Shown piece after piece: positions 12,882 to 42,210 of a stretch of DNA of 42,210 nucleotides. This DNA is from Thermodesulfobacteriota bacterium (GTDB lineage: Bacteria; Desulfobacterota_D; UBA1144; Nemesobacterales; N074bin48): NCBI GenBank assembly GCA_041572575.1, contig JBFFSH010000019.1, forward strand, positions 1 to 42,210, read 5' to 3'. The notes beneath the pieces are model-generated. The model searched no databases and was not told the origin of the DNA. It worked only from the letters and a program-made list of their open reading frames with translations. Position 1 is the first letter of the stretch. Each line of letters opens with the position of its first letter. A program made the translations under genes and the position numbers.

Positions 12882-13250
12882 ATGGACAACCAGGAAGATA
12901 TATTAGATAAATTTAGAGCAGGCCTTAACAGAGGGCTTAGAATCGTAAATGTACGCTCAAAAGAGGCATATGATGTACTCAAAACCAAAAATAATATCCA
13001 GGGTAAAAACAGGAATAAAAGAAAACTAGTAGAAGAGCTTGGAAATGCTGTATTCAGGACCTATAAACATAAAGGCAATATTAGTGAAGATAGTATAAAA
13101 AATAAATGTGAAGATATATTAAAAATGGAATCAGAAATTGATGATTTAAATGAGCAGATACAAAATATACATGAAAATGCATTAAAAGAGCTTGGTAAAT
13201 TAAAGGCTATTACAAAGCCAAATGATGATAGCGATGATGGTAAAGAGTGA
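12882..13250 (+). CDS. Hypothetical coiled-coil protein
   Basis: 122-aa ORF with AAGGA RBS; helical and charged composition. Confidence 0.7.
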   Translation: MDNQEDILDKFRAGLNRGLRIVNVRSKEAYDVLKTKNNIQGKNRNKRKLVEELGNAVFRTYKHKGNISEDSIKNKCEDILKMESEIDDLNEQIQNIHENALKELGKLKAITKPNDDSDDGKE

Positions 13251-13350: not shown

Positions 13351-13875
13351 ATGAAAATTGCAATCTTATCTATTTTATCATTTTGTGTTCTTGGAATTCA
13401 GGGCGTAATAGCAGAAATTCCTATCATGGCAAAGTCTAAGTTAAAAAACAGCGCTGGTGAAGTTGTAGGTGTTGCCACTTTTTTAGAGAGCAATGATGGG
13501 GTAAACATAGCAGTGCAGGTAAGGAGCTTAACCCCGGGACTTCATGGTATCCATATTCATGAGACTGGAAAGTGCAAAGCTCCGGATTTTAAATCAGCCG
13601 GTGGACATTTTAATCCATTTGCTGTAAGTCACGGCCTTAGAAACCCCAAGGGCTATCATGTCGGAGATTTGGGAAATATCCTTATTAAAGAAGACGGCAC
13701 AGGCACAATGCTTACACTTTCAAGCCTTGCAACACTGCAAGGCAGCAAAAATTCTCTATTTAGAAAAGGCGGTACGGCATTGGTAATACACTCCGGCCCA
13801 GATGACCTTATTTCTGATCCTACCGGCAATGCAGGCAGCAGAGTTGCTTGTGGAGTAATTAAAATGATTAAGTAA
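13351..13875 (+). CDS. sodC: Periplasmic Cu/Zn superoxide dismutase
   Basis: Signal peptide; HGIHIHE, GGHFNP, SHG, HVGDLGN, VIHSGPDD, GNAGSRVACG (all metal ligands present). Confidence 0.93.
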   Translation: MKIAILSILSFCVLGIQGVIAEIPIMAKSKLKNSAGEVVGVATFLESNDGVNIAVQVRSLTPGLHGIHIHETGKCKAPDFKSAGGHFNPFAVSHGLRNPKGYHVGDLGNILIKEDGTGTMLTLSSLATLQGSKNSLFRKGGTALVIHSGPDDLISDPTGNAGSRVACGVIKMIK

Positions 13876-14189
13876 ATAGTTGTAGACAATATTTACTTTG
13901 GCTGTCTTGGCATACTCTAAAGCATACATCTTCTAACCAAAAAAGAGTGGAGTCCCCTTTTACTTAAATGTCTTTGTTATCAAAAAGAGTGAAGTGTCCG
14001 CACATTTAAGGAACTTATACAATATTGGTGCTATCCTGAGAAAGTGATTTTTACATCCTGTTGGGCCTCAGAGCTAGATATTCCTTTTGCAACAGAATTA
14101 TGCAACAGTAAGAATATAATAATTTCAGGAACTTATACGGGATCAATTAACTATTGCAAAAACGTTCCTTTTTGCAACACTACGGTATG

Positions 14190-14600
14190 TTAACTCTGGT
14201 CAGGCACACCAAGCTGACAAACTTCCCCTAACTCATCAAAATTCTTTTGTTCTATAAGTTGCTCAATATCATTGTCCTGTATACCACCAAGAACCTGACA
14301 TATCTGTGAGCACTGTACATCGGCACAATTGCTAGTTCTTCTTTCTTAGATTGCTGATGAATTACAAACAGCATCACAAAGTCCAGGTACAGTTTCGGGC
14401 GGCACACTCAGCGCACTATTTATTATTGAAGCTGTGAGAGCCTTATCTGTATAACATGCAAAGAACTTCTTCTCACAGCTGTGAATTATTGCATTAAATA
14501 AATTCTGCTGTGGAGGAGTTAGTCCTGCCCTAGCTTCGTCTATCCCCCCCCAGCTAAGAAACATTGTTCCCAGCATAAGTCCTAATATTGTGTTTTTCAT
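14190..14600 (-). pseudogene. Secreted Cys-rich protein with an internal in-frame TAA (14346-14348)
   Basis: GAGG RBS, ATG at 14600, signal peptide ending EARA. The frame continues 51 codons past TAA (ERRTSNCADVQCSQICQVLGG...EVCQLGVPDQS*). 8 Cys in total. Confidence 0.6.
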
Positions 14601-14814
14601 ATCCAAGCCTCTTTCGTCCTTCATAGATTTAAGTCCTACCACTACATAAGATGACAAAACAGGACTTAAGTTTCATTCTCTCTTCAAACTCTATTAGTTT
14701 TATTATGTAAAGTCAATGACTTATTATAAAAGGACAAAATAATGGGGGACATGATGTTTTACATATATTCAATTATCACACAATTGATTTTACATATCTG
14801 GCGTTTATTACTCT

Positions 14815-14842
14815 AAATCCGATAAGATAACTTATGTTAATA
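14815..14842 (+). other. XerC/XerD dif-like recombination site
   Basis: AAATCCGATAA-GATAAC-TTATGTTAATA has the 11-6-11 layout. Compare E. coli dif GGTGCGCATAA-TGTATA-TTATGTTAAAT. Confidence 0.55.
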
Positions 14843-15051
14843 AATATTCTAAGTGTATTTTTTTATTAATCCTCTGCTGAAAACCTTCCTAATTAGTGAC
14901 ATAAAAAGGGGACTGAATAAAAGGGGGCACTTGTAAATGCTCAGTAATTAAGTAACCAAATTTGTATATATTAATAACTATTATTTTGATTAATATTAGG
15001 CTCTATGAGCACAGTAGACTTCTGTAATAGAAATATGAAGAGAAATACGAA

Positions 15052-16152
15052 TTAGTATCCGCTGTAGGATTCGAATATTTCTCCAAAATCCTTGTTTATT
15101 TCTATAAAAGCCTTAATGATGTCCGGGTCAAAGTGATCGGGGCTTGTTCTTCCATCACCCTCGGTAATTATCTTCAAAGCCTCATCATGGGTAAATGGCT
15201 TTTTATACGGCCTTGTACTTCTTAGTGCATCGTACTGATCTGCTATAATCGTTATCCTGGCTGAAATTGGTATCTGTGTTTTGCTAAGGCCGTTTGGATA
15301 CCCTGAGCCATCCCATGTTTCATGATGGTTTCTGGCAATTTCCTGACCCATTTTCAGGAATGTAGATTCTGATCCTTCTAAAATCTTTGCCCCAATTGTA
15401 GTATGAGTTTTCATTATTTCCCATTCCTCGGCATTTAATGCACCGGGTTTTAAAAGAATACTGTCAGGTATTCCAACCTTTCCTATATCGTGCATAGGAG
15501 AAGCATGGAATATATTTTCAATAAATTCAGTGTTCATTGAAAGCGTTTCAGCTATCTTCCTGGTATATAAACTTATTCTTTTTATGTGAGAGCCTGTGGC
15601 CTGATCTTTAAACTCAGTAGCAAGAGTGAGTCTGTAAATAGTCTCAAGATAGGCAGCCTTGGTGCTATCATGTGCTAGGTTTAGTTCAAAAAGGGCTTTT
15701 TGCAGTTCTTGCGTTCTTTGTTGAACCTTTTCTTCCAATATGTCATTATTCTCTTTTAGAAGGTCATTGTATTTTTTGATCTTGAGGTTATTTTTTATCC
15801 TCATTGCAAGCTCTTCAAAATCATAGGGCTTTGTGAGGAAGTCATCGGCCCCTTTGGAAATACCCGTAAGAAGGTCCTCTCTCGAGCCTAGGGCTGTTAC
15901 TATGATTACCGGAATCTGTTTGGTTCTATCATCGGCTTTGATTTTTTCTGTTGAATCAAATCCATTCATTTTTGGCATGATAACATCCATAATTATAAGG
16001 TCGGGACTGTTATCTACCGCATAGTCTATTGCCTCTTCGCCGTTTGTTGCCTGAAACGTTTTGTATCCCATGTTTTCGCACATATTATTGAGAAGCAGTC
16101 TGTTTCTGGGTTCATCGTCTACTATGAGTATCTTTGATTTATGATTGTCCAT
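15052..16152 (-). CDS. Response regulator with HD-GYP c-di-GMP phosphodiesterase domain (RpfG-like)
   Basis: REC (ILIVDD, MDVIMP, FLTKP), a coiled coil, then TGSHIKR, HDIGK, HHETWDGSGYP, RPYK. Likely start MDNHK at 16152 (the ORF track gives 16185). Confidence 0.93.
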   Translation of the reverse strand: MDNHKSKILIVDDEPRNRLLLNNMCENMGYKTFQATNGEEAIDYAVDNSPDLIIMDVIMPKMNGFDSTEKIKADDRTKQIPVIIVTALGSREDLLTGISKGADDFLTKPYDFEELAMRIKNNLKIKKYNDLLKENNDILEEKVQQRTQELQKALFELNLAHDSTKAAYLETIYRLTLATEFKDQATGSHIKRISLYTRKIAETLSMNTEFIENIFHASPMHDIGKVGIPDSILLKPGALNAEEWEIMKTHTTIGAKILEGSESTFLKMGQEIARNHHETWDGSGYPNGLSKTQIPISARITIIADQYDALRSTRPYKKPFTHDEALKIITEGDGRTSPDHFDPDIIKAFIEINKDFGEIFESYSGY

Positions 16153-16381
16153 AAGAATATTCTTTAGGTTATATATATATAACATTTTATAATTTATAAA
16201 TTTTATTTCAATTGTACAATAATTTTTATAATGTTTTATAATATCAGTTATTTTTTATATAACTGTTTTAATAACCCGATATCAGGTTTATAATTAATAT
16301 TTACATTCTTACGGGGTTAGTATAAGTATTACTAAAGTATTAATATGCGTAGTAATATAAAATTATAATAAATTATATTAA

Positions 16382-19300
16382 ATGAGTGAATCCAGGATAG
16401 AAAATAAGCTGTTAAACGATCACGCCGACTGCTTGGAAAGGGTCTACATTGAAGGTCAGGTACCGTGTGTAGTTTTTTATAAGGGTGATAGTCCCGATGA
16501 ATATACTCTTAAGTTATATAATATCTTTTCAAACCGGGGGTTTAAGTCATATCTTGTACCAGAAGATTTTCTTATTAAAGACAAGCAGGATTTAAAAGTA
16601 TATGAAGAGATTATTAACAGCGCTTGTCTGTTTATTTTTTACATTGATGAAAACAGATCAAGTTTTCTGTATTGTCTTGGTCATATAAGGGCAAAGAGCC
16701 GTCCTATCCTCACTATTACTCGTGAAAAGCTCTTAGAAGACATAAGTTCTGATTATAGCAGTGAATTTAAATACGATTCAGGATTTTACGAAATCGACTA
16801 CGGAAAGCTAAGCGAAATTGGGCAAGAAAGCAATTCTCTTGTTAATTTCATAGCATCGGTAGATCATTCTAAAAACTTTGTATTGAGCAGTAAGGATAGT
16901 GATAACGAAATAAGTGATATATATGCAAGCTTTGATCAAATCATTGAATATATTAAGCCTGACCTACAGTCGTTATTCACTGAAGATCTGAACGATAAAC
17001 TGTCTGGTGACTTGGAACCGGAGTATAAAGATATTATTGATACATACTTTGGATTAAACAATACTGATTCGGATAAATTAATAAAATATCTGGATATAAA
17101 GCCCAAGGATAAATCACTTAAGAATAGTTCTGCCTATTTATTATTTTTAAACATTGTTCTTACTAACATAATTAACTATCTAAGCAATAAATACTCCGAT
17201 AAAAACTATAAGCTTGTATTGGATAAGTATGAAGAGATTATAAAAAATACAGAAATTACTGATGAGAAAAAACACACAGTGCATAGCATTATAGGCCTTG
17301 AAAACAAGGGTGCGGCATGCTTAATCCTCAGTTGTTTAAAACATGATGACAGTTTCTTAGAAGAATCGGAAAAGCTATTCGAAAAGTCCTCTAAGCTAAA
17401 AAAGACTAATCTTCTAAAAGATATTTTTTCTGGAGCTAAGATCAACTATGCTCTTTTGCAAGAATATCTTGCAGATTCAACCGGCTCGGTAGATAGCTTC
17501 AATAACACATTGGAGCTCTTAAAGGATGCAGATATTGCAAATGATGGGTTTGATCCAGCCTTTAAAGACGGTCTGGCTTTGAATAATAAAGCCATATGCC
17601 TTAGAAAACTCTCCCCCGTAACCAAGAATCAGTCTGAGCTGCAACTGGCCGCAGAGCAGAGTGAAAAGGCTTTTAAAATATTTGAGTCAAGTAATAGAAC
17701 GCTTCACAAAATATCTGCCCTATTTAATATCTCGGCCTCGCTTTTATATGAATCAAAGCTTGCAAATGAAAAGAAATTTTGTACTGAGGCCCTTGAAAAA
17801 TTAGATCAGGCATTTGACTTATTGGATAAAAATACGGATGTAAGATTGTATAAAAAAGCCCTTATTATTAAAGCTTTGATCTTTGAGCATCTTTTTGAAT
17901 TTGATAATAGTACCGACAACTTGCAAAATGCTATTGAGCACTATACTCAGGCTCTTGACTGTGTAAGTGATCAGGTTGATTCAATAAATGTGGCGCTAAT
18001 AAAGAATCAAATTGGTGTGAATTACAACATCCTGGCAGAGACAGCAGACAAGACTGAAAACTCCAAGAAATCAGTCAAGTTTCATGGTGAAGCATTAACT
18101 TCTATTTCCAAAGAGACCCACTTATATGAATATTCCTATATTAAAATGTGTGAGGGAAACTCCTACAGGCTTTTGGCAGAGGAAGAAGAATCACAGGATA
18201 ACTGTCTGCTTGCGCAGCGGTGTTATGAGGCATCTCTTGGACATTTTTCTGCCGACGAGTATCCAAGGGAGTATGCAATTGTAAACAACAACATAGGTTC
18301 CACATTTGAATTTCTTGCAGCTATTACAGATGATAAAAATTATCTAGAAAAAGCAATTGCTGCCTATGAACAGACCTTAAAAATTTATAATATTAAGGAT
18401 AATCCCTATGAATATGCAGCAGTTCAAAATAACCTTGGTAATTCTTTCGGGGCTCGTTCTGAGTTTGAAGATCCTGCGGAAAATGGCTCAAAAGCAATAA
18501 CTGCATACACAGAGGCGCTTAAGGTAAGAACTCTTAGTGACTATCCCAAAGAGTATGCAATGACCCAGAACAATCTCGGTGTTGTTTATGACATTATTTC
18601 AGAGCATGAAGATAAAGAGGCTAACAGTAAAAGTGCTATAGAGTGTTATAAGGAATCGATTAAGTTTTATGATGAAGAGTCATTTGCAGAAAACTATGCG
18701 ATGATCCAAAAGAACCTTGGGGGAGCATACAGAAGGCTATCTGAGGTAAGCAATGCAAAAGATAACAGCCTGCTTGCAAAAGACGCATACGAAAAAGCTC
18801 TTAGATTCTACACCAAGGATGATTTTGCTGAAGACTACAGCTTAATTCAAAAAAACATATCGTCTCTTCTCACAAATGTAGCAAGATATTCAAAAGATAA
18901 AGGCGAGTTGATAAAATCAATTGAACAGCACAATGCTACTCTAAAAGAGCTTGATCAAAATACAGATTCAGATGAATATGCATTTGTTTTAAATGATATT
19001 TGTATCCTAAAATCAGCACTTTTTGATCTGGAGCATACTGAATCAAACCTAAAAAGTTTATCAGAAAGCTGCAATCGTGCGCTTGAGGTTATTACACCTG
19101 AAGATAATAGCTCTGAATTTGCATCTATAAACAAAATGCTTTCTGATGCATTTATAAGTTATCTCGAAACAAATAGTAGTGAAGATTACTGCCTTGATGC
19201 CATTGGTTTTGGAAAGCAGGCGCTAAAGGTTTATAAATCAAAAGATTATCCCGCAGATAATGCAAAACTAAATGAAAATATTGGTATAGCCCAAAGCAGC

Positions 19301-22300
19301 CTTGCTGATTTTAAGGACAAAGATACAAATTATAAAGAATCGGTTAAATCATTTAAAGAAGCACTGAAGTATTATGATGCAAATAATCACCCTATAGATA
19401 ATGCAAGGATTAATAATAATCTTGGAAATGTTTATAAATCTTTATCTGAGGTTGAAGGTACTGAAAAAAACCTTAAGAATGCGATTGATTCATATGATAA
19501 AGCTCTTGGCGCTTATACTGAAAATGATTTTCCATATGAATACAGCAAAGTTAAAAATAATTTAGCCATTGCATATTCTGCTCTTGGTCTGCTAAAAAAT
19601 GATTCAGAAATTCTTAATAAATCTATTGATGCACTTAAAAAAGCTCTTAGTATTAGAGATAAGGAACAATATCCCGAAGAATACGCCGCAAGCTGCTACA
19701 ATTTGGGGTCTACATATAGCAAGTGTTATGAATTAAGCGGAGAAACTGAAAATTTAAAGCAATGTATAGAATCATATAAGGATTCTCTTGACCTTAGAAA
19801 AGCGGATAAATATCCAAACGAGTTTGCTGCAACATCAAATAGCCTTGGAAATGCTTACAGGGCGCTTTCACTTGTAGAAGATACTGCCGTTAACCTTGGC
19901 CTTGCAAAAGATTGTTATACAAGCTGCCTTGAAATTTATACTGAAAAAGATTTTCCAGAACAATATGCCGCTGTACAAAATAATTTGGGAGTGGTCTATT
20001 CATCAATCGGGGAGATAAATAATGATCTTTCAAGCTATGAAAAAGCAATCGAACACTACGGTAAGTCCCTTGTAATAAGGGATAAGAAAAATTATCCCAA
20101 GCATTATGCAAATATAAATTCCGGGCTTGGGTCAAACTACTTTCTTCTGTCTCAAAGTAAAGACACAGTGGACAACTTAAAAAAGGCTCTTGAGTGTTAT
20201 ACAGAGTCAATGGATTATTACACATCCAAGGACTTTCCATTTGATCATTATTTCCTGCAGCATAGATTGGGAAATATACACTTTGAACTATCTGAAGTTG
20301 AAAACATCAACGAAAATGCGACAAAAGCTCAGCAATACTTCATAAATTCACTCAAGTACTTCAGTGCCAAGGAATATAAGGCTGAAAATACTCAGATAAA
20401 CAAGAATCTTGGAGAGATTTACTATCTCTTGGCTGAAGAGGGTGATCATAAAAAAAATGTTGCAAGCTCAATTAAACACTTAGAGCAGGCTGTTAATAAC
20501 ATCACCCCAGAAGATGATAAAGATCTTTATTCATCTGTACAGTTTTTGTTGGGCAGGTCATATGAAGACTACTCCAATATAGAAAAAACTGAGGAATATT
20601 TACAAAAGGCAAGGGATTCATTCAGTCAGGCGGTGGAACTGATTGACCCGGAAAATAAGCCATATGAGTATAGCCAAATAAGCTCAACGCTTGGTGGTAT
20701 TTATACCAAACTTTCTGCATACGGAGATAAACTTGCAAACATTTTAAAATCCATTGAGCTATATGAACAGGCCCTCTCACCAAATGCTATTGGCAGAGAT
20801 GACTTTGAATATGGCTATATTTCTAAGGATATAGGCGTAAGCTATACACTTCTTGCAAAAGAAGAAGACAAACTTGAAAACTGCAAAAAAGCAATAGAAT
20901 CATTTAACAATGCTCTAAAAGTTGAAGATATAAAAAATGATCCATATCAGTTTGGTACAGTAAATAAAGAGCTTGCGTCTGCATACGATACTATTTCTCA
21001 AGAGGAACAAAAAATTGAAAACTCGAGACTTGCAGCAGAGGCCTACAAAAAGGCATTGCAAGTATTTAGTTATGATGACTACCCCGAAGATTTCGGTTTA
21101 ATTAATTATAGACTTGGAAGACTTCTTGGAACACTTTCCAAAGCTGCAGATAAAGATTCAAACCTAAATGAAGCTTTGCAATATTTACAGAGCGCTTGTG
21201 AATATTATGATGAGAAATCATATCCTCGGCAATATGCAGATATTCAGTCTGAAATGGGTTCATGTCATAGGGCTCTTGCTGATATCAGTTCTGAGCCTCA
21301 AAAAACTGAGCTTATAAATAAATCTATAGATTGTCTTAAAAACAGTTTAAAAATATATGACGTTAAATCTCATCCTGCAGATTTTGCAAGTATAAGCAAC
21401 GAACTTGGAAACAATTATTTGGTATTGTCTGATTTGCATAAAGATGCCCTAAGCTGCAAAAACGCCATCAAGGCATATGAGGACTCACTTAATATCAGAA
21501 CTTCTGATAACTACCCCGTACAGCATGCACTTACAAGTAACAACCTTGGGGTAGCCTATATCAGTTTATCAGAAATTGAAGATAAGATTAAAAATTGTGA
21601 GGCTTCAATTAAGGCATATAGTGACAGTTTAAGAGTTTATACAGAAGATAATTATCCACTTCAGTTTGCTTCAATTAATTGCAACATGGGCTCGGCGTAC
21701 AGTATACTTGCAATTGAGGAACAGGATGTAGAGCAAAACCTGGAAAACTCTATAAAGTCCTACGAGCAAAGCCTCAAAATTTATAATAATGATGAGTTCC
21801 CTCATGAATTTGCAACTGTACAAAAAGGCATAGCAGATTTATATTACCAGAAGTATCTGCTGAACCAGATTGAAGAAGATTTAACCAAGGCTGTGCAGCT
21901 GTATGAGCAAATCGTTGAAACTAAAGCTTTTGATAATGATTCTGAAGAATTTGCTCAGCTAAACAAAAATCTTGGCAGCACTTGTTTATCCCTATCCGAA
22001 ATCACTAAGAGTGATAAATCTTTACTTGAGAAGGCTTCCGGGTGTTTTGAAATTGCACTAAAGTATTATACTCAGGATGACTTTGAGAATGAATACTATG
22101 AAATTACGAAGAACATCGCCGAGATTGGATTAAAACTGTATTTAGAATCTGGCAGTACTGAGTTGTTTGACAAGGCAAGCAAACAATTTGAGAATTGCAT
22201 CGATTATTATAATCCAACTGATTTTACAGAAGAACACAAAAATATTCAGATAAGTCTTGGAAGGCTTTTAAGTTCAAAATATGAAAGGAAAAACGATCTT

Positions 22301-25300
22301 GATACGCTAAAACTTGCCATAGATCATTTTGAAGCAGCAGCGGATCTTATAAATTTTAAGGATAGTCCAAGCGACTTTGGTTTTGTTAATTTTGAGCTTG
22401 GAAAACTTCATAAATACAGGGCAGAACTAGAAGATAACATTGATATTCTAAATGTTTCACTGATACACATTAACCATGCCCTCAAGTTTTATCATCCTAA
22501 TGAATATAAAAAAGAATATGAGCAGTTGCAGGATATCATCTCAGATATTAAGCCCCAGCTCCTTGAGCTTGAAGAAAAAGACTATGGGGATTCAAAAGAA
22601 GAATTGACAGAAGCTCTGCATTATTACAATGAAATGTTGCAGTCCCTTGATAAATCTAAATCTGAAGACCGTTATTACTCTTTTAAAAATAAACTGGCAA
22701 CTACATTTCTTTCACTTTATGAAAAAGAAGATAATAAGGACCATCTTCAAAAAGCCCTGGATAATTTTAAAGATGTTTTAGAAAACTACAGTTCAATTAC
22801 TGCTGAAGATAAAGCCATACTCAATACAAACATTGCGTCAGCATATTATCTCATTGGAGATATGGGTAAGGATAAAGATACTCTTGAGCACGCTATTTCT
22901 CATAATAAGGATGCTCTAGAATATTTTGTTGCTGGGGATTATCCATTTGAAAATTCAAAGATTCATGATATTAACGGAAAGATATATTTGAGCTTATCCG
23001 AGTCTGAGAATTTTATAGATAACATTATAAGCGCCATTGATAGTTTTGATAAATCCTGTGTGATTGACAGGGAAGAATATCCACAGGAATACAAGAACAT
23101 TGAAAATAACTTTAATAAATTGTATGACCTGCTTGAATCAAAAGAAGACGAACTTACAGGTGAAGAGGAATACTGTAATAAGCTTATCACCATTTATGAA
23201 CAGCTTCTTAACATCAGCTTCATTAAGGAATATTTACCGAAATATTCCGAAACTAAAAAAAGGATAGGCCACCTGTACTCAGTGGTTGCTGATATAGGAA
23301 AAGAGGCTGAAAACTACGATAAATCCATAGATAAATACACTGAAGCTTTAGAGTTTTTTAGTGCAAAGGACAATCCTCAGGAATATGCCTATTTAAACAG
23401 GTCACTTGCAAAGGCTTATAGCTATTCATATATAGAGTCTGCAGAACAAAGTAAAATAGATAATGCCATAGATGCTTATAACAAATGCATAGATTATTAT
23501 GAAAAAAACGACTATGGGCGCGAACATGCAGAGGTTCAGACAGAGCTTGGTGACCTGTTTGTAAAATTACAGGAAAAAAGCCCGGGTGATGAAAACCTGA
23601 TGCAGGCCCTTGAATATTATAAAACCGCAATTGAAATCTATTCAAAAGGCGGATTCGAACAAGACCTGGGCACAGTAGTGAAAAAGTGTGAGAGTGCTTG
23701 CAGTGATTATTTAGATGTTTTAGACACAATGTTGAAAGAAGAATTACTTGATCCAGTTGCTGAAAGTCTAAAGACACTAAAAAACAAATATGAGCAATTT
23801 TTAGAATTGCAAATTAACAAACTGCCTGATACGAATTTTGGAATTGCACATTTAAAAATTGGGCAGATATTCATGCAGCTTTCCAATATGGAAAGTGAGG
23901 ATGATAATTTGCAAGCCTGCATAAAATCTTTTGAAAAAGCAATAAGTATTCTGGATTCCAAGACAAATAAGGATCAGTATTCATTAACTCTTAAAAATCT
24001 AAGTGATCTATATCTGAGGATTTCCGAAGAGTCCAGAAATGAAAAAGATATAAATAAATGTATAAATTATTCAAAGGAATACCAGAGCCTTTTTCCGGGA
24101 AGTTATGCAGAGACCAATTACAATGAAGTATCTCAGAATTTAAATACAGCTACTAAACTTCTGGATGATGTTAACAAGGGTTATGAGGCGCTCGAAGAAA
24201 AACTTAGCATCAAAGACACTAAAGAAGAAAAACAAGATAAACCTAAAGAACAAGCGGATAGTAAAAGCGAAGAGGCAGAAAAGGTTGAAGAACCTATACA
24301 AGAGGATCAAGGAGAGGAAGAAAAGCAGGCTGAACCACAAAGTATTACCGAAGACAGTGTTGAGACAGATGAAGAAATTGAAGAGCTAGATGAAATAGAA
24401 ATACTCGATGTTGAACATATAATTGATGAAGATGAACAGATTGTTGATGAAGAGGATATTCAACAACCCATACAATTTAGCGAGTCTGCCAAGGATGAGC
24501 CGAAAATAGAAAATGTAGAAGATGAGATTAAAAATTATGAAAACAAGCTAAGAACCACTAGTAAAAAAGACAACCCCGAAGATTATGCAGACAGCCTTTA
24601 TATACTCGGAAATGCTTATCTGCAGTTAGCTAAAAATGATAATGACCTGGATGCATATTCCAAGGCAGCAGAGGCGTTTAGAGAATCATTATCGTATTAT
24701 ACAAAGACAGTTGATAAGCAGCGTTACGGGCTTATAAAAAAATCTCTGGGCGACATATTTACAAAGTATGCCGAGGTAGAAGATAAAGTAAAAAACCTTA
24801 GAGAAGGCATCAAGCTTCTCGAAGAATCGTATGAAATACTAAAAGAGTCGGGTACAAAAGATTCAGTAAAAGATAATCTATTAATTCTTGCAAGGGCACA
24901 TTTTTCAATTTCGGAACAAGAAGGGCAGAACGATGATTATAAGACCTCGCTTGGCTATTCTACTAAAGCGCTTACTCTTATGGATGATAGCGAAAAACTG
25001 TCCAGTGCGCAGACAAGCAGACTTATAGCTGATACTTATAGAGCAATTAATGAACAATCTTCTCTCACTTCCAATTTTAAAAATTCGGTTGAGCACTACA
25101 AAAAAACATTAATATACTATACTAAAACAGATTTTCCTGATGATTATGCAAACATATACGACAGCATGGGTTCTTGTTATAAAGTACTGGCGGAATTAGA
25201 GGACAGCAGTAAAAACCTTGCCGAATCAATTAACTGCTATAATGAAATCCTGGGCGTTTATGATCTGGAGAAATCTCCACAGCAGTATGCGGCTACAGAG

Positions 25301-27025
25301 AATAACCTTGGCATAATTTACCGGGCGCTTTCCGAAGTTGAAAATAAAGCTGAAAACTGCAAAAAAGCAATCGACTCTTATGAAAAGACGCTAAAAGTTT
25401 ATAATATAGGTGACTACCCACAGCAGTATGGTGCAATACAAAACAATCTGGGTGCTGCATACAGAAGCCTTTCTGAAGTAGAGAACAAGGCTCCAAATTG
25501 TAAAAAAGCCATTAATTCTTTTAGAGAGGCTCTTAAGGTAAGAACAATTGACGAATATCCTGCCTACCATGCATCTACTCAAAACAATCTCGCCGCTACT
25601 TACCTAACTCTTGCAGAGGCCGAAGATTCCAAGGCAAATAACAAGAATGCTATTAATGCATATGAGGACTCCCTTAAGGTTTTTACATTTAAAGAATTTC
25701 CACTCGAGCACGGTATTATCCAAAAGAACATCGGAGATATTTATTTTGATAACTCTGCCGGTGATGATAAAAAGGATATCAAAAAGGCGCTTAGCTGTTA
25801 TGAGAGTGCGATTATTAGCTATGATAAGGATGCATATGCCGAGGAATATAGCGAGCTTAGCAACAAGGTAGGAGAAATTTATCTTACCTTTACCGAAAAA
25901 GATGAAAGGATAAAAAATCTAAACGAAGCCATAAAATATTTTGAAGGAGCTCATAGCTGTCTAAGTAAGGATGATCATAAATATGAGTATATAGTTACAT
26001 GTAAAAACCTGAGTGTAGGTTATCTTGAGCTTGGTGAAGAGCAAGATGATGTAGAAAAATATAAGAAGGCAAGGGAGTTTGGAGAAGAGGCGCTTTCGCA
26101 TATAAATGATAAAGATTCTAAAGAGTTTGGTGAGACCACTAAATGTCTGGGTAGTGTTTACTATGATATAGGGGCAGAAACGGGTGACCTTGAGAGCTAT
26201 CATAAATGCCTGGAATCATTTAACTCAAGCCTTAAATATTTTACAAAAGAAGATCATGAAGAGGACTATGCAACTATAAAAGACAATCTAGCTACATGCT
26301 ATAAGACTCTTTCCGAATATGAAAATGAAGCAGCTAACTGCAACAAGGCAATAGAATGTTATATGGATGTACTAAAAGTTTACAGCTCGGAAGAAAGCCC
26401 AATACAATATGCGGCTACACAAAATAATCTCGGGGTAACATACAGAACGCTTGCAGAATACGAAAATCAGGCTGAGAATTGCAAAAAGGCCATCGATTCA
26501 TATGAACAAACTCTAAAAGTGTATGACTTTGATAACTTCCCGCTTCAGTATGGAGCAATAAAAAATAACCTGGGTGCAGCTTACAAAACACTAGCTGATG
26601 TTGAAAATAAAGTCGGAAACAGCAATAAAGCCATCGACTGTTATAATGAGGCTTTGAAAGTTAGAACCTTTGATGCATTCCCTATGCATTTTGCCGCTAC
26701 TCAAAACAATCTTGGGGTTGCCTACAGGACTCTTGCAGAGGAAGAGGGCAGGGCGGAAAACTCAAAGAACGCTATTAGGGCCTATGAGAGCGCGCTTGAG
26801 GTCTATACCTACAGAAACTTCCCGGTACAGTTTGCATCTGTACAGAACAACATCGGTATGACATACAGGACTCTTGCCGAGATTGAAGATAAGCTTGGCA
26901 GCTGCCAAAAAGGAATCAAGGCATTTGAAGAAGCGCTTAGCGTATTCACTGCGGACGAACACCCCGATACCTATGAGCTTGTAAAAGCTAATTTGGATGA
27001 TATCACAAAGTTTGAGATGAGTTAA
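16382..27025 (+). CDS. Giant TPR-like solenoid protein (3547 aa, 47-aa repeats) with an N-terminal TIR/NDT-like alpha/beta domain
   Basis: Uninterrupted ORF. Repeat consensus (Y/F)PxxYAxxQNNLGxAYxxLxExEDxxENxxKAIxxYExALKVYT, with a P-to-P spacing of 47 aa where counted. Acidic linker at about 24210-24530. Confidence 0.9.
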   Translation: MSESRIENKLLNDHADCLERVYIEGQVPCVVFYKGDSPDEYTLKLYNIFSNRGFKSYLVPEDFLIKDKQDLKVYEEIINSACLFIFYIDENRSSFLYCLGHIRAKSRPILTITREKLLEDISSDYSSEFKYDSGFYEIDYGKLSEIGQESNSLVNFIASVDHSKNFVLSSKDSDNEISDIYASFDQIIEYIKPDLQSLFTEDLNDKLSGDLEPEYKDIIDTYFGLNNTDSDKLIKYLDIKPKDKSLKNSSAYLLFLNIVLTNIINYLSNKYSDKNYKLVLDKYEEIIKNTEITDEKKHTVHSIIGLENKGAACLILSCLKHDDSFLEESEKLFEKSSKLKKTNLLKDIFSGAKINYALLQEYLADSTGSVDSFNNTLELLKDADIANDGFDPAFKDGLALNNKAICLRKLSPVTKNQSELQLAAEQSEKAFKIFESSNRTLHKISALFNISASLLYESKLANEKKFCTEALEKLDQAFDLLDKNTDVRLYKKALIIKALIFEHLFEFDNSTDNLQNAIEHYTQALDCVSDQVDSINVALIKNQIGVNYNILAETADKTENSKKSVKFHGEALTSISKETHLYEYSYIKMCEGNSYRLLAEEEESQDNCLLAQRCYEASLGHFSADEYPREYAIVNNNIGSTFEFLAAITDDKNYLEKAIAAYEQTLKIYNIKDNPYEYAAVQNNLGNSFGARSEFEDPAENGSKAITAYTEALKVRTLSDYPKEYAMTQNNLGVVYDIISEHEDKEANSKSAIECYKESIKFYDEESFAENYAMIQKNLGGAYRRLSEVSNAKDNSLLAKDAYEKALRFYTKDDFAEDYSLIQKNISSLLTNVARYSKDKGELIKSIEQHNATLKELDQNTDSDEYAFVLNDICILKSALFDLEHTESNLKSLSESCNRALEVITPEDNSSEFASINKMLSDAFISYLETNSSEDYCLDAIGFGKQALKVYKSKDYPADNAKLNENIGIAQSSLADFKDKDTNYKESVKSFKEALKYYDANNHPIDNARINNNLGNVYKSLSEVEGTEKNLKNAIDSYDKALGAYTENDFPYEYSKVKNNLAIAYSALGLLKNDSEILNKSIDALKKALSIRDKEQYPEEYAASCYNLGSTYSKCYELSGETENLKQCIESYKDSLDLRKADKYPNEFAATSNSLGNAYRALSLVEDTAVNLGLAKDCYTSCLEIYTEKDFPEQYAAVQNNLGVVYSSIGEINNDLSSYEKAIEHYGKSLVIRDKKNYPKHYANINSGLGSNYFLLSQSKDTVDNLKKALECYTESMDYYTSKDFPFDHYFLQHRLGNIHFELSEVENINENATKAQQYFINSLKYFSAKEYKAENTQINKNLGEIYYLLAEEGDHKKNVASSIKHLEQAVNNITPEDDKDLYSSVQFLLGRSYEDYSNIEKTEEYLQKARDSFSQAVELIDPENKPYEYSQISSTLGGIYTKLSAYGDKLANILKSIELYEQALSPNAIGRDDFEYGYISKDIGVSYTLLAKEEDKLENCKKAIESFNNALKVEDIKNDPYQFGTVNKELASAYDTISQEEQKIENSRLAAEAYKKALQVFSYDDYPEDFGLINYRLGRLLGTLSKAADKDSNLNEALQYLQSACEYYDEKSYPRQYADIQSEMGSCHRALADISSEPQKTELINKSIDCLKNSLKIYDVKSHPADFASISNELGNNYLVLSDLHKDALSCKNAIKAYEDSLNIRTSDNYPVQHALTSNNLGVAYISLSEIEDKIKNCEASIKAYSDSLRVYTEDNYPLQFASINCNMGSAYSILAIEEQDVEQNLENSIKSYEQSLKIYNNDEFPHEFATVQKGIADLYYQKYLLNQIEEDLTKAVQLYEQIVETKAFDNDSEEFAQLNKNLGSTCLSLSEITKSDKSLLEKASGCFEIALKYYTQDDFENEYYEITKNIAEIGLKLYLESGSTELFDKASKQFENCIDYYNPTDFTEEHKNIQISLGRLLSSKYERKNDLDTLKLAIDHFEAAADLINFKDSPSDFGFVNFELGKLHKYRAELEDNIDILNVSLIHINHALKFYHPNEYKKEYEQLQDIISDIKPQLLELEEKDYGDSKEELTEALHYYNEMLQSLDKSKSEDRYYSFKNKLATTFLSLYEKEDNKDHLQKALDNFKDVLENYSSITAEDKAILNTNIASAYYLIGDMGKDKDTLEHAISHNKDALEYFVAGDYPFENSKIHDINGKIYLSLSESENFIDNIISAIDSFDKSCVIDREEYPQEYKNIENNFNKLYDLLESKEDELTGEEEYCNKLITIYEQLLNISFIKEYLPKYSETKKRIGHLYSVVADIGKEAENYDKSIDKYTEALEFFSAKDNPQEYAYLNRSLAKAYSYSYIESAEQSKIDNAIDAYNKCIDYYEKNDYGREHAEVQTELGDLFVKLQEKSPGDENLMQALEYYKTAIEIYSKGGFEQDLGTVVKKCESACSDYLDVLDTMLKEELLDPVAESLKTLKNKYEQFLELQINKLPDTNFGIAHLKIGQIFMQLSNMESEDDNLQACIKSFEKAISILDSKTNKDQYSLTLKNLSDLYLRISEESRNEKDINKCINYSKEYQSLFPGSYAETNYNEVSQNLNTATKLLDDVNKGYEALEEKLSIKDTKEEKQDKPKEQADSKSEEAEKVEEPIQEDQGEEEKQAEPQSITEDSVETDEEIEELDEIEILDVEHIIDEDEQIVDEEDIQQPIQFSESAKDEPKIENVEDEIKNYENKLRTTSKKDNPEDYADSLYILGNAYLQLAKNDNDLDAYSKAAEAFRESLSYYTKTVDKQRYGLIKKSLGDIFTKYAEVEDKVKNLREGIKLLEESYEILKESGTKDSVKDNLLILARAHFSISEQEGQNDDYKTSLGYSTKALTLMDDSEKLSSAQTSRLIADTYRAINEQSSLTSNFKNSVEHYKKTLIYYTKTDFPDDYANIYDSMGSCYKVLAELEDSSKNLAESINCYNEILGVYDLEKSPQQYAATENNLGIIYRALSEVENKAENCKKAIDSYEKTLKVYNIGDYPQQYGAIQNNLGAAYRSLSEVENKAPNCKKAINSFREALKVRTIDEYPAYHASTQNNLAATYLTLAEAEDSKANNKNAINAYEDSLKVFTFKEFPLEHGIIQKNIGDIYFDNSAGDDKKDIKKALSCYESAIISYDKDAYAEEYSELSNKVGEIYLTFTEKDERIKNLNEAIKYFEGAHSCLSKDDHKYEYIVTCKNLSVGYLELGEEQDDVEKYKKAREFGEEALSHINDKDSKEFGETTKCLGSVYYDIGAETGDLESYHKCLESFNSSLKYFTKEDHEEDYATIKDNLATCYKTLSEYENEAANCNKAIECYMDVLKVYSSEESPIQYAATQNNLGVTYRTLAEYENQAENCKKAIDSYEQTLKVYDFDNFPLQYGAIKNNLGAAYKTLADVENKVGNSNKAIDCYNEALKVRTFDAFPMHFAATQNNLGVAYRTLAEEEGRAENSKNAIRAYESALEVYTYRNFPVQFASVQNNIGMTYRTLAEIEDKLGSCQKGIKAFEEALSVFTADEHPDTYELVKANLDDITKFEMS

Positions 27026-27049: not shown

Positions 27050-28306
27050 CTATTGATTGAATTCAAATTTCTGAATCGCAGTTAAATCCACCTCTTCTTC
27101 ACTGCTCGACTGCATATCTCTTATTTTTACTTTGCCTCGCTCAAACTCCTCTTCCCCAACAATGACAGTATATTTTGCCTCAAGCTTGTTCGCTCTTTTA
27201 AGCTTGCTCTTAAGGCTCCTGTCATTGTAGTCCACTTCTACTGTTAAACCTTTTTGCCTGAGATCAAAAGCAGTCTTCATGGCAAAGTCTTCGTACTTAT
27301 TATCAAGATAGGCAATATATATATCTGTCCTTTTATTAAAACCTGCCGGATGCAGTTTTTCATGCAGCAGTATCATCCTTTCTATACCGGTAGCAAAACC
27401 AATGGCAGGGGTGTCCTGTCCTCCAAGCTGTTTTACAAGCCCGTCGTATCTGCCGCCGGCAGCGACGGCGTTTTGTGATCCAAGTGCATCGGTTGTCACT
27501 TCAAACACGGTTCTGTTATAGTAATCAAGCCCTCTCACTATTTTAGGATTAATCACATATTCGACTTCCATCCTATCAAGGAGCTCTCTTACTCTTTTAA
27601 AATGGATGTCACACTCCTCACACAGAAAATCAAGAATCGAAGGTAGATCGGCTGTAGCTTTACTGCAAGACTCTTTCTTGCAGTCAAGAATTCTAAGCGG
27701 GTTAGTGCTTAGTCTCCTCTTGCAGTCATCACAGAGCTCATTTTCTTTTGCCTTAAGTACTTTTGTAATTTCCTCTTTATAATGCGGTCTGCACTTGTCA
27801 TCCCCAAGACTGCTGAGCTCAATTTGCAATGCAGAGCCTATGCTGCTTTTTTCAAAAATTTCCCATAGCATTATTATTGCCTCAGCATCATACTGAGGGT
27901 CATAAGAGCCAAATAACTCAGCACCAATCTGGCTGAAGCTTCTATAACGGCCTTTTTGCGGCCTTTCATGCCTGAACATAGGCCCAAGATAATATAGTTT
28001 ATTGATAGGAGACTTTAGATGCATCGAGTTTTCTATATAAGAACGCACTACGCTTGCCGTGCCTTCTGGCCGCAGCGTAATGGAAGAGCCGTCGCGGTCT
28101 TCAAATGTGTACATCTCTTTTTCGACTATGTCTGTTGTATTCCCTATTCCTCTTGTAAATACCTCGGTAAATTCCAATAAAGGAGGCCTGATTTCTGAAA
28201 AGCCATATAGCTCGAGAATTTGCTTTGCCGTGTCTTCGATAAAATGCCATCTTTTAATGTTCTCCGGCAGAGTATCTTTAAAACCTCTTATCGTTTGTGT
28301 TTTCAT
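27050..28306 (-). CDS. hisS: Histidine--tRNA ligase
   Basis: TDIVEKEMYTF, LRPEGTA, FRHERPQKGRYR, VRGLDYY, GGRYDGL, GFATGIER. Confidence 0.98.
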   Translation of the reverse strand: MKTQTIRGFKDTLPENIKRWHFIEDTAKQILELYGFSEIRPPLLEFTEVFTRGIGNTTDIVEKEMYTFEDRDGSSITLRPEGTASVVRSYIENSMHLKSPINKLYYLGPMFRHERPQKGRYRSFSQIGAELFGSYDPQYDAEAIIMLWEIFEKSSIGSALQIELSSLGDDKCRPHYKEEITKVLKAKENELCDDCKRRLSTNPLRILDCKKESCSKATADLPSILDFLCEECDIHFKRVRELLDRMEVEYVINPKIVRGLDYYNRTVFEVTTDALGSQNAVAAGGRYDGLVKQLGGQDTPAIGFATGIERMILLHEKLHPAGFNKRTDIYIAYLDNKYEDFAMKTAFDLRQKGLTVEVDYNDRSLKSKLKRANKLEAKYTVIVGEEEFERGKVKIRDMQSSSEEEVDLTAIQKFEFNQ

Positions 28307-38616: not shown

Positions 38617-39363
38617 ATGAAAGAAAGTGCTACGGAAAATAAAATAGATATTTATTCTAAGGATATTCCTTTTATTGAAGGCCCACGGAGAAGAGAGAGT
38701 GAGCTGTATACGGTCATTCAGATTATGACCGAATTTATCAAGGGTTTTAGAACATTCCATTTTGTTGGCCCTTGTATTACTGTGTTTGGCTCTGCGCGCA
38801 TTGCTGAAGACCATCCATACTATAAGATGACAATGGATATTGGGGCAAGGCTTGCAGAAATGGGACTTACCGTAATGACAGGAGGCGGCCCTGGGCTTAT
38901 GGAGGCTGCAAACAGGGGGGCAAAGGAAGCCGGAGGAAGGTCTGTAGGGTGTAATATTCTGCTTCCCTTTGAACAGAAGCCAAATCCATATATGGATAAA
39001 TGGATGGACTTTCAGTTCTTTTTTGTAAGAAAAGTGATGTTAATAAAGTATTCTTACGGTTTTGTCGTTATGCCCGGAGGAGTGGGCACGATGGACGAGC
39101 TTTTTCAGGCGCTCACATTAATACAGACAAAAAAAGTGATTAATTTCCCGATTGTTCTGATAGGTAAGGATTATTACAAGGATGTTACCGAACTGTTTGA
39201 TAAAATGTGTGAAGAGCAAACTATAAGCAATAATGATAGAGACCTGTTTTTAGTTACTGACTCTATGGACCAGGCCTGTGAGCATATACATGTTCATGCT
39301 GTGGAAAAATTTAATCTTAAGACCAAAAAACTTCCCGGAAGATCAAAACTGCTTTTTGAGTAA
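38617..39363 (+). CDS. LOG-family (TIGR00730 Rossmann-fold) phosphoribohydrolase
   Basis: VFGSAR, TGGGPGLMEAANRGA, FFVRKVM, PGGVGTMDE. Confidence 0.92.
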   Translation: MKESATENKIDIYSKDIPFIEGPRRRESELYTVIQIMTEFIKGFRTFHFVGPCITVFGSARIAEDHPYYKMTMDIGARLAEMGLTVMTGGGPGLMEAANRGAKEAGGRSVGCNILLPFEQKPNPYMDKWMDFQFFFVRKVMLIKYSYGFVVMPGGVGTMDELFQALTLIQTKKVINFPIVLIGKDYYKDVTELFDKMCEEQTISNNDRDLFLVTDSMDQACEHIHVHAVEKFNLKTKKLPGRSKLLFE

Positions 39364-42071: not shown

Positions 42072-42149
42072 TGGCGTCCCCGAGGGGATTTGAACCCCTG
42101 TTGCCGGCGTGAAAGGCCGGTGTCCTGGGCCAAGCTAGACGACGGGGAC
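42072..42149 (-). tRNA. tRNA-Glu (TTC)
   Basis: GTCCCCG/CGGGGAC acceptor stem, anticodon loop CTTTCAC, GGTTCAAATCC T-arm, encoded CCA. Confidence 0.96.
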
Positions 42150-42157
42150 ACACAATA

Positions 42158-42210
42158 TGAGCCGTGCAGGATTCGAACCTGCGACCCACTGCTTAAAAGG
42201 CAGTTGCTCT
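42158..42210 (-). tRNA. tRNA-Lys (TTT), 5' part outside the window
   Basis: Anticodon arm CTGC-CTTTTAA-GCAG, GGTTCGAATCC T-arm; no encoded CCA. Confidence 0.9.

Follow-up and report, generated by a model that had tools for sequence, protein, structure and literature searches.

The window, meaning the whole stretch of DNA analysed here, is an entire contig (C19) of 42,210 bases with zero N. In mid-contig, on the forward strand, lies a single stop-free open reading frame (16382..27025) encoding a protein of 3547 amino acids (405 kDa, pI 4.7). The gene is single copy in its genome, where a search recovered one other ORF (259 aa) with a weak score. Upstream on the same strand are a gene for a 122-aa protein of unassigned function (12882..13250), placed by synteny, and sodC (13351..13875), and these are followed on the reverse strand by a response regulator–HD-GYP gene for a predicted c-di-GMP phosphodiesterase (15052..16185). 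The convergent hisS gene (27050..28306, reverse strand) lies downstream; like sodC and the HD-GYP gene, it was assigned by Pfam. The 1.2 kb between sodC and the HD-GYP gene (13876-15051) carries a 103-aa ORF without a Pfam match and amounts to about 120 bases in genome G001. Ordinary features elsewhere in the window include a LOG/SLOG-cluster-4 family gene (38617-39363) and, at the contig end, a tRNA-Glu with a cut tRNA (42072-42210).

An initial annotation, made from the same DNA, had described one intact 10.6-kb frame composed of roughly 60 copies of a 47-aa TPR-like repeat, and on both points it was accurate. A profile iterated on the giant protein's own repeats delimits 64 repeat domains, 61 of them at E<0.01, spanning aa 397-3526, and 54 of 60 spacings measure 46-48 aa. 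The array is divided 44 + 17 by an acidic low-complexity spacer (aa 2571-2730; 24092..24571) with a D+E content of 34%; this and the segments that follow are all on the forward strand. In the first array, which covers aa 397-2570 (17570..24091) with 44 of the 47-aa repeats, the copy number of the middle part differs among genomes, and in the second (17 repeats, aa 2731-3526; 24572..26959) repeats 50-52 are similar to repeats 58-60. The protein closes with a conserved C-terminal module comprising the last five repeats and a tail (26255..27022), in which an Asn ladder and three invariant Arg residues form a predicted ligand-binding groove. The statement that the protein consists almost entirely of repeats is apt for aa 397-3526 but neglects the acidic spacer and some 400 non-repeat N-terminal residues, which include a TIR/NDT-like domain.

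No transmembrane or signal-like segment was found in the giant protein, for which the top 19-residue hydropathy is 1.36, and the sole Walker-A-like match (aa 1222) falls within a repeat helix; both results agree with the initial annotation. Pfam and motif scans of the protein likewise revealed no P-loop NTPase domain of the STAND/NLR-like kind (Avs, NB-ARC, NACHT). CHAT and NB-ARC, the two domains against which that annotation had staked its reading, were found neither among the five listed of eight matching Pfam families nor in a separate scan of the non-repeat segments. Outside the repeats the protein has no sizeable part other than the head, linker and acidic spacer, and a CHAT His/Cys dyad was not found. 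NCBIfam matches of the giant protein were far under the cut-offs.

The source assembly comprises 137 contigs and the exact protein is absent from a collection of 15 billion proteins, both of which could be taken to mean that the ORF is an assembly artefact or a functionless, decaying repeat expansion. We consider this explanation highly improbable. The repeats are indeed strongly diverged at the DNA level, as first annotated, with the 20 direct-repeat families listed being only 25-55 nt long at 60-84% identity, and such divergence is too great for collapse. Moreover, 0.99 of sampled words from the stretch are present in 14 DNA sequencing runs from nine studies (all 14 are marked as possible sources). 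Orthologues of 2822 and 3092 aa are encoded by genomes of one and three contigs, respectively, and a same-genus copy is collinear with the window's protein. Misassembly is therefore unlikely, and decay is countered by dN/dS values below 1 (see below). RNA-labelled runs holding 0.97, 0.92 and 0.34 of the sampled words were considered as evidence of expression and rejected, because they may hold the stretch as DNA. Three runs with small word shares (0.08-0.15) were disregarded.

The domain overlooked by the initial annotation is a TIR/NDT-like head at aa ~25-125 (16454..16756), recognised by profile and alignment and joined to the array by a non-repeat linker without a Pfam match (aa 126-396; 16757..17569). 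By itself the window's head has no Pfam match, and the heads of relatives match CAP12-PCTIR_TIR (PF10137) or Nuc_deoxyrib_tr (PF05014) weakly. An hhalign comparison of the head alignment with the NDT-like protein P0125 gave a probability of 95.9 (E 6e-9). Matches in the PDB were limited to weak TIR hits (7xoz, E 0.03; 7uxr, E 0.08), and in a protein atlas the head falls near TIR/NDT clusters at 0.86-0.89, which is a lead only. Searching 1.84 billion proteins with a profile built from five heads yielded 135, with the shared consensus LDGxRPNVLxExG. In the window the corresponding motif, YIDENRSSFLYCLG (aa 87-100), departs from the family consensus ILDGxRPNVLxExG at two positions, with Asn replaced by Ser94 and Glu by Cys98. 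The Glu of DGxRPNxxxE is the putative catalytic residue, by analogy with TIR and NDT enzymes. Because the motif is degenerate, the head of the window's protein is likely disabled as an enzyme, to judge from the alignment. The earlier claim that the array lacks catalytic partners consequently fails in form, given the N-terminal fusion, and probably holds in effect.

Relatives of the head fall into giant-type proteins and compact members, mostly of 600-755 aa, that consist of a head plus 47-aa TPRs and whose named representatives come from Nitrosarchaeum and Hodarchaeota. In 18 of 18 aligned compact members the His, Asp, Arg, Asn and Glu residues and a Ser-Asp pair are invariant. With groups defined by the tree, which replaced circular motif-defined groups, 101 of 104 compact rows retain the motif Glu; the corresponding counts are 15 of 42 for giant-type rows (including three duplicates) and 12 of 24 for the giant copies located in genomes. 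The full DGxRPNxxxE motif survives in just one of those 24 copies (G038). Eight different residues substitute for Glu in giant-type heads, which indicates that it was lost repeatedly. Giant heads are nested on long branches among compact ones in a 146-row tree, although this tree has few columns and many open forks, and the placement of the window's own head is prone to long-branch attraction. Two further proteins of 3473 and 3530 aa (P0094 and P0128) combine the same head (Glu replaced by Lys) with 47-aa repeats and possibly represent another lineage.

Eighty metagenome loci of compact relatives were collected by a pattern requiring the intact motif, and 25 long ones were examined. An ORF was obtained from 23. 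In 22 loci there were 115 neighbours, of which eight were dropped as duplicates or TPR halves and the other 107 scanned. Defence or mobile genes occur within three genes in 11 of the 22 loci, a raw count with no background control; they include integrase, Cas1/NYN, GmrSD/HEPN, SLATT (twice), PIN, REase, Panacea, HEPN/NERD, AlbA_2 and type III RM genes. No c-di-GMP riboswitch was detected in the 11 compact loci scanned for one (0/11), and the compact family had no match in viral contigs. Related 47-aa arrays are elsewhere fused to TIR_2, DUF4062, CHAT or a membrane anchor, in keeping with the earlier remark that CHAT or TIR effectors are the usual partners of such repeats. On account of these neighbourhoods and fusions the ancestor looks like a mobile sensor-effector, and the giant protein appears to behave otherwise.

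Two observations on related loci are recorded here in their own right. In 7 of 23 compact loci (L161, L175, L176, L179, L183, L185 and L188) the head forms an ORF of its own (250-345 aa) next to a second, downstream ORF, often with an overlap of a few bases. The four such downstream ORFs that were scanned are TPR arrays. The arrangement could be that of a two-gene system or the product of a programmed frameshift, or simply an error. In other Thermodesulfobacteriota (L097:5462-8645 and L098:9317-12282), a membrane-anchored protein with ten 47-aa repeats is encoded convergently with a gene judged by eye to be PilT-like.

The same compact loci invite the alternative that the giant protein is still an innate-immune pattern sensor, with an array that recognises several phage proteins, signalling through the head or a partner, and expression switched on in the biofilm state. 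Compact relatives with an intact motif occupy varied sites in bacteria and archaea, half of the loci scanned have the defence or mobile neighbours listed above, the repeat type is fused to known effector domains, and half of the giant copies retain Glu. Yet the motif as a whole is broken in the window and in 23 of 24 copies, neither the giant protein nor any of three heads matched a family among the PADLOC models (0 families), no conserved effector partner accompanies the gene, and the viral contigs lack a relative. We therefore regard continued immune function as rather unlikely, and the chromosomal setting and the pattern of selection described below bear on it as well.

The closest named relatives of the giant protein belong to Ca. 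Dadabacteria. A single-sequence scan of genome contigs returned no match and an alignment-based scan found relatives; the family is thus not confined to the window. Among 120 genomes of the class the head profile matches 23 and the C-terminal module 31. The shortest complete copy has 782 aa and the longest 3771, with between 12 and 61 repeats per copy. The gene is single copy at a fixed site: 23 of 24 related main loci have the 122-aa gene on the upstream side, and hisS is downstream in 15 of the 16 loci that have enough DNA. sodC is found upstream in families f1 and f7 only. The 122-aa neighbour was considered as a partner and rejected, since it has a match in 49 of 120 genomes, many of them without the giant gene, and it probably lies outside the giant-protein system. 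A divergent upstream gene for an exported HEAT-like repeat protein of ~825 aa marks the f2 loci (L044:2151-4628 and equivalents) and is present also where the giant gene is missing.

Loss of the gene is frequent. The flanks are closed up in five of seven sampled genomes without the giant gene (L057, L058, L062, L066 and L069), the remaining two (L059 and L061) have a helicase and restriction-modification-like pair at the site, and two more gene-less loci (L060 and L067) were uninformative. In genus g16 the flanking genes are present and both the giant gene and PilT are absent. The same helicase and restriction-modification-like pair sits at the giant-gene site in G046, G010 and G003. A second copy of 1571-1573 aa, without the C-terminal tail and without a riboswitch, occurs in G082 and G084 (L052:5365-10086 and L053:5659-10374) near tRNA-Pro, with an integrase in G082. 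The defence-like pair, the second copies, the frequent loss and the range in repeat number all favour an immune role, against which stands the fixation of the main locus among housekeeping genes. An HKD+Snf2 helicase gene is found at this chromosomal site in three genomes (L037:14154-20000, L059:5996-12631 and L061:3955-9802), and the next gene in L059 encodes a type IIG restriction-modification enzyme.

Sequence comparisons are consistent with long-term maintenance of the gene. A 17-row tree of the C-terminal module agrees with a 20-row hisS tree on f3+f8 and on nested f2 groups, although the deep forks are weak, and on this evidence the giant gene follows the hisS tree by vertical inheritance at a fixed locus. 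Across families, identity is 45-57% in the last five repeats, compared with ~23-30% over the whole length for most, and the invariant or near-invariant Asn ladder and the three invariant Arg residues are seen in 15 of 15 rows. For five pairs of one genus, dN/dS was 0.26-0.39 for the whole gene, 0.14-0.25 for the last five repeats, 0.19-0.47 for the head and 0.31-1.37 for the linker. These values come from our own Nei-Gojobori script, with hisS rows dropped because of miscalled start codons and with dS for G000-G001 near saturation. The region matching the linker (aa 125-300) is the fastest-evolving in four of the five pairs, and only 1 of 25 region-by-pair values exceeds 1 (linker, dS 0.05). 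By these estimates purifying selection acts on the giant gene, most strongly on its last five repeats. No part of the protein is more conserved than this putative binding end, a pattern opposite to that of an arms race and one that counts further against immune recognition. The fixed locus, the agreement with hisS and the low dN/dS bear out the initial description of the protein as old, maintained and cytoplasmic.

A link to c-di-GMP, also missed at first, emerges from the relatives. A c-di-GMP-I riboswitch lies upstream of the giant gene in 17 of 23 main loci, including all f2, f3, f4 and f8 loci, and is also found beside the G040 and G037 copies. It is absent from five f7 loci, from both second copies and from the window, where no match reached the gathering score and none appeared at E<=10. 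Terminator-like hairpins were flagged in 2 of the 14 relatives' riboswitch loci examined, and within the window neither promoter-like sites (41 versus 44.2 in shuffled sequence) nor terminator-like sites (6 versus 6.5) were above chance. The HD-GYP gene is divergent from the giant gene at a distance of 196 bases and adjoins it in just 3 of the 25 main loci, those of G000, G001 and G038, so its adjacency may be chance. Elsewhere the window's genome has 16 c-di-GMP-I riboswitches. Fourteen of these sites were inspected, and at many of them the riboswitch stands in front of a gene for an exported, adhesin-like or PilY1-like protein or ahead of a run of glycosyltransferase genes, classes that were judged by eye from N-termini. 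One site (G000:C87:7818-8472) has three tandem matches on one strand within 650 bases, before a gene for an exported protein.

The gene also keeps company with type IV pilus and c-di-GMP functions at the genome level. It is carried by 31 of 46 PilT-positive genomes versus 0 of 74 PilT-negative ones, GGDEF domains are present in 31 of 31 carriers (55/120 genomes overall) and the riboswitch class in 30 of 31 (44/120 overall); the PilT and GGDEF co-occurrence rests on few related, often genome-reduced lineages that are not independent. Fifteen PilT-positive genomes lack the giant gene, and hence its product is not core pilus machinery. FlhA was found in 0 of 5 genomes.

Because the head is likely disabled and a c-di-GMP riboswitch precedes the gene in most relatives, the giant protein is likely a repurposed immune-type sensor. 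The explanation that we favour, at somewhat short of even odds, is that a TIR/TPR sensor of this type was domesticated into a c-di-GMP-linked, non-catalytic cytoplasmic scaffold for surface-attached life. This proposal draws on the observed architecture, motif decay, fixed locus, purifying selection, riboswitches of relatives, and the presence of PilT and GGDEF in all carriers. It is weakened by the lack of a riboswitch in the window and the five f7 loci, by an HD-GYP neighbour in no more than 3 of 25 loci, by the PilT-positive genomes without the gene, by the absence of MglB/Roadblock from all 120 genomes, and by the finding that no pilus gene adjoins the giant gene. Under the scaffold proposal, the protein would descend from the compact head plus 47-aa-TPR family with an intact enzyme motif and would serve the likely c-di-GMP-controlled, surface-attached lifestyle of Dadabacteria. 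The Asn/Arg groove of the last five repeats may bind one conserved host partner, probably a component of type IV pili, adhesin export or EPS. The middle array, with its variable length, would serve as a spacer or as a platform with several sites and would measure about 50 nm if the usual TPR geometry holds. The head may be retained only as a docking or oligomerising module. In a more specific version, which we hold only tentatively, the sensor was captured early in Dadabacteria and then repeatedly disarmed; it grew into a giant solenoid and became an output of c-di-GMP signalling, organising type IV pili or the export of adhesins in bacteria without MglA/MglB.

Some of the same features would suit a secretion chaperone for large unfolded adhesins or pilus-tip proteins, or a ruler that sets the length of a structure by repeat number. 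The solenoid is acidic, its length varies about five-fold between lineages (782-3771 aa), its relatives share their riboswitch class with genes for exported proteins, and the closest solved TPR structure is that of a bacterial kinesin-light-chain-like protein (BKLC; 5o09, E 3e-8). However, no structure or substrate that scales with protein length was identified, the gene is cleanly lost in close relatives and no secretion gene adjoins it. We judge this explanation to be improbable, and the molecular ruler suggested in the initial annotation found no support.

In the literature searched (titles and abstract starts, with most subscription journals outside its scope) the giant protein is not described, and the main text of the Dadabacteria genome paper does not contain the words 'pili', 'repeat' or 'biofilm' (PMC8115339). 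It is a real, conserved protein, undescribed in that literature, whose two domains were already known. The analysis adds its order-wide history, with compact ancestors, repeated loss of the catalytic motif and a lineage without the riboswitch. If the scaffold proposal is true, the family offers a traceable case of the domestication of a bacterial immune-type protein, in which a defence gene was exapted as lifestyle machinery, and adds a c-di-GMP signalling output in an uncultured lineage. Intact, half-decayed and dead heads all occur within this one family, as do arrays of 12-61 repeats, so that enzyme loss and repeat expansion become testable together; G038, whose copy has an intact motif, and G007, with a copy of 782 aa, supply natural controls.

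Several known systems resemble the giant protein in part. TPR-CHAT and TIR-(NTPase)-TPR proteins have the same repeat type, and such fusions occur among related loci, but the giant protein carries no CHAT or NTPase domain. TPR-S (PF20308) is matched weakly, scoring 29.4 bits where the cut-off is 27.6 and with its best stretch at aa 3367-3474, although no single stretch passes alone and the conserved neighbourhood has no SLOG partner. BKLC (5o09/5o01), also a weak match, is ~240 aa long with shorter repeats. A possible functional analogue, likened by description, is provided by SgmX and Bd2492, which regulate type IV pili, since each is a large cytoplasmic TPR protein in a piliated bacterium. 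SgmX is a 1060-aa protein with 5+3 TPRs that acts via MglA-GTP, independently of c-di-GMP (PMC7519303). MglB/Roadblock, searched for as PF03259, is found in 0 of 120 genomes of the giant protein's class, and so this component of the known TPR-pilus circuit is missing there. The nearest counterparts are compact TIR/NDT-like-TPR fusions such as Nitrosarchaeum koreense EGP94038.1 (755 aa), in which a homologous head is likewise followed by 47-aa repeats of the same kind. Compared with these fusions, whose scanned loci are free of the riboswitch that precedes the giant's relatives, the giant protein is about five times longer, its motif is degenerate, and its locus is fixed and vertically inherited.
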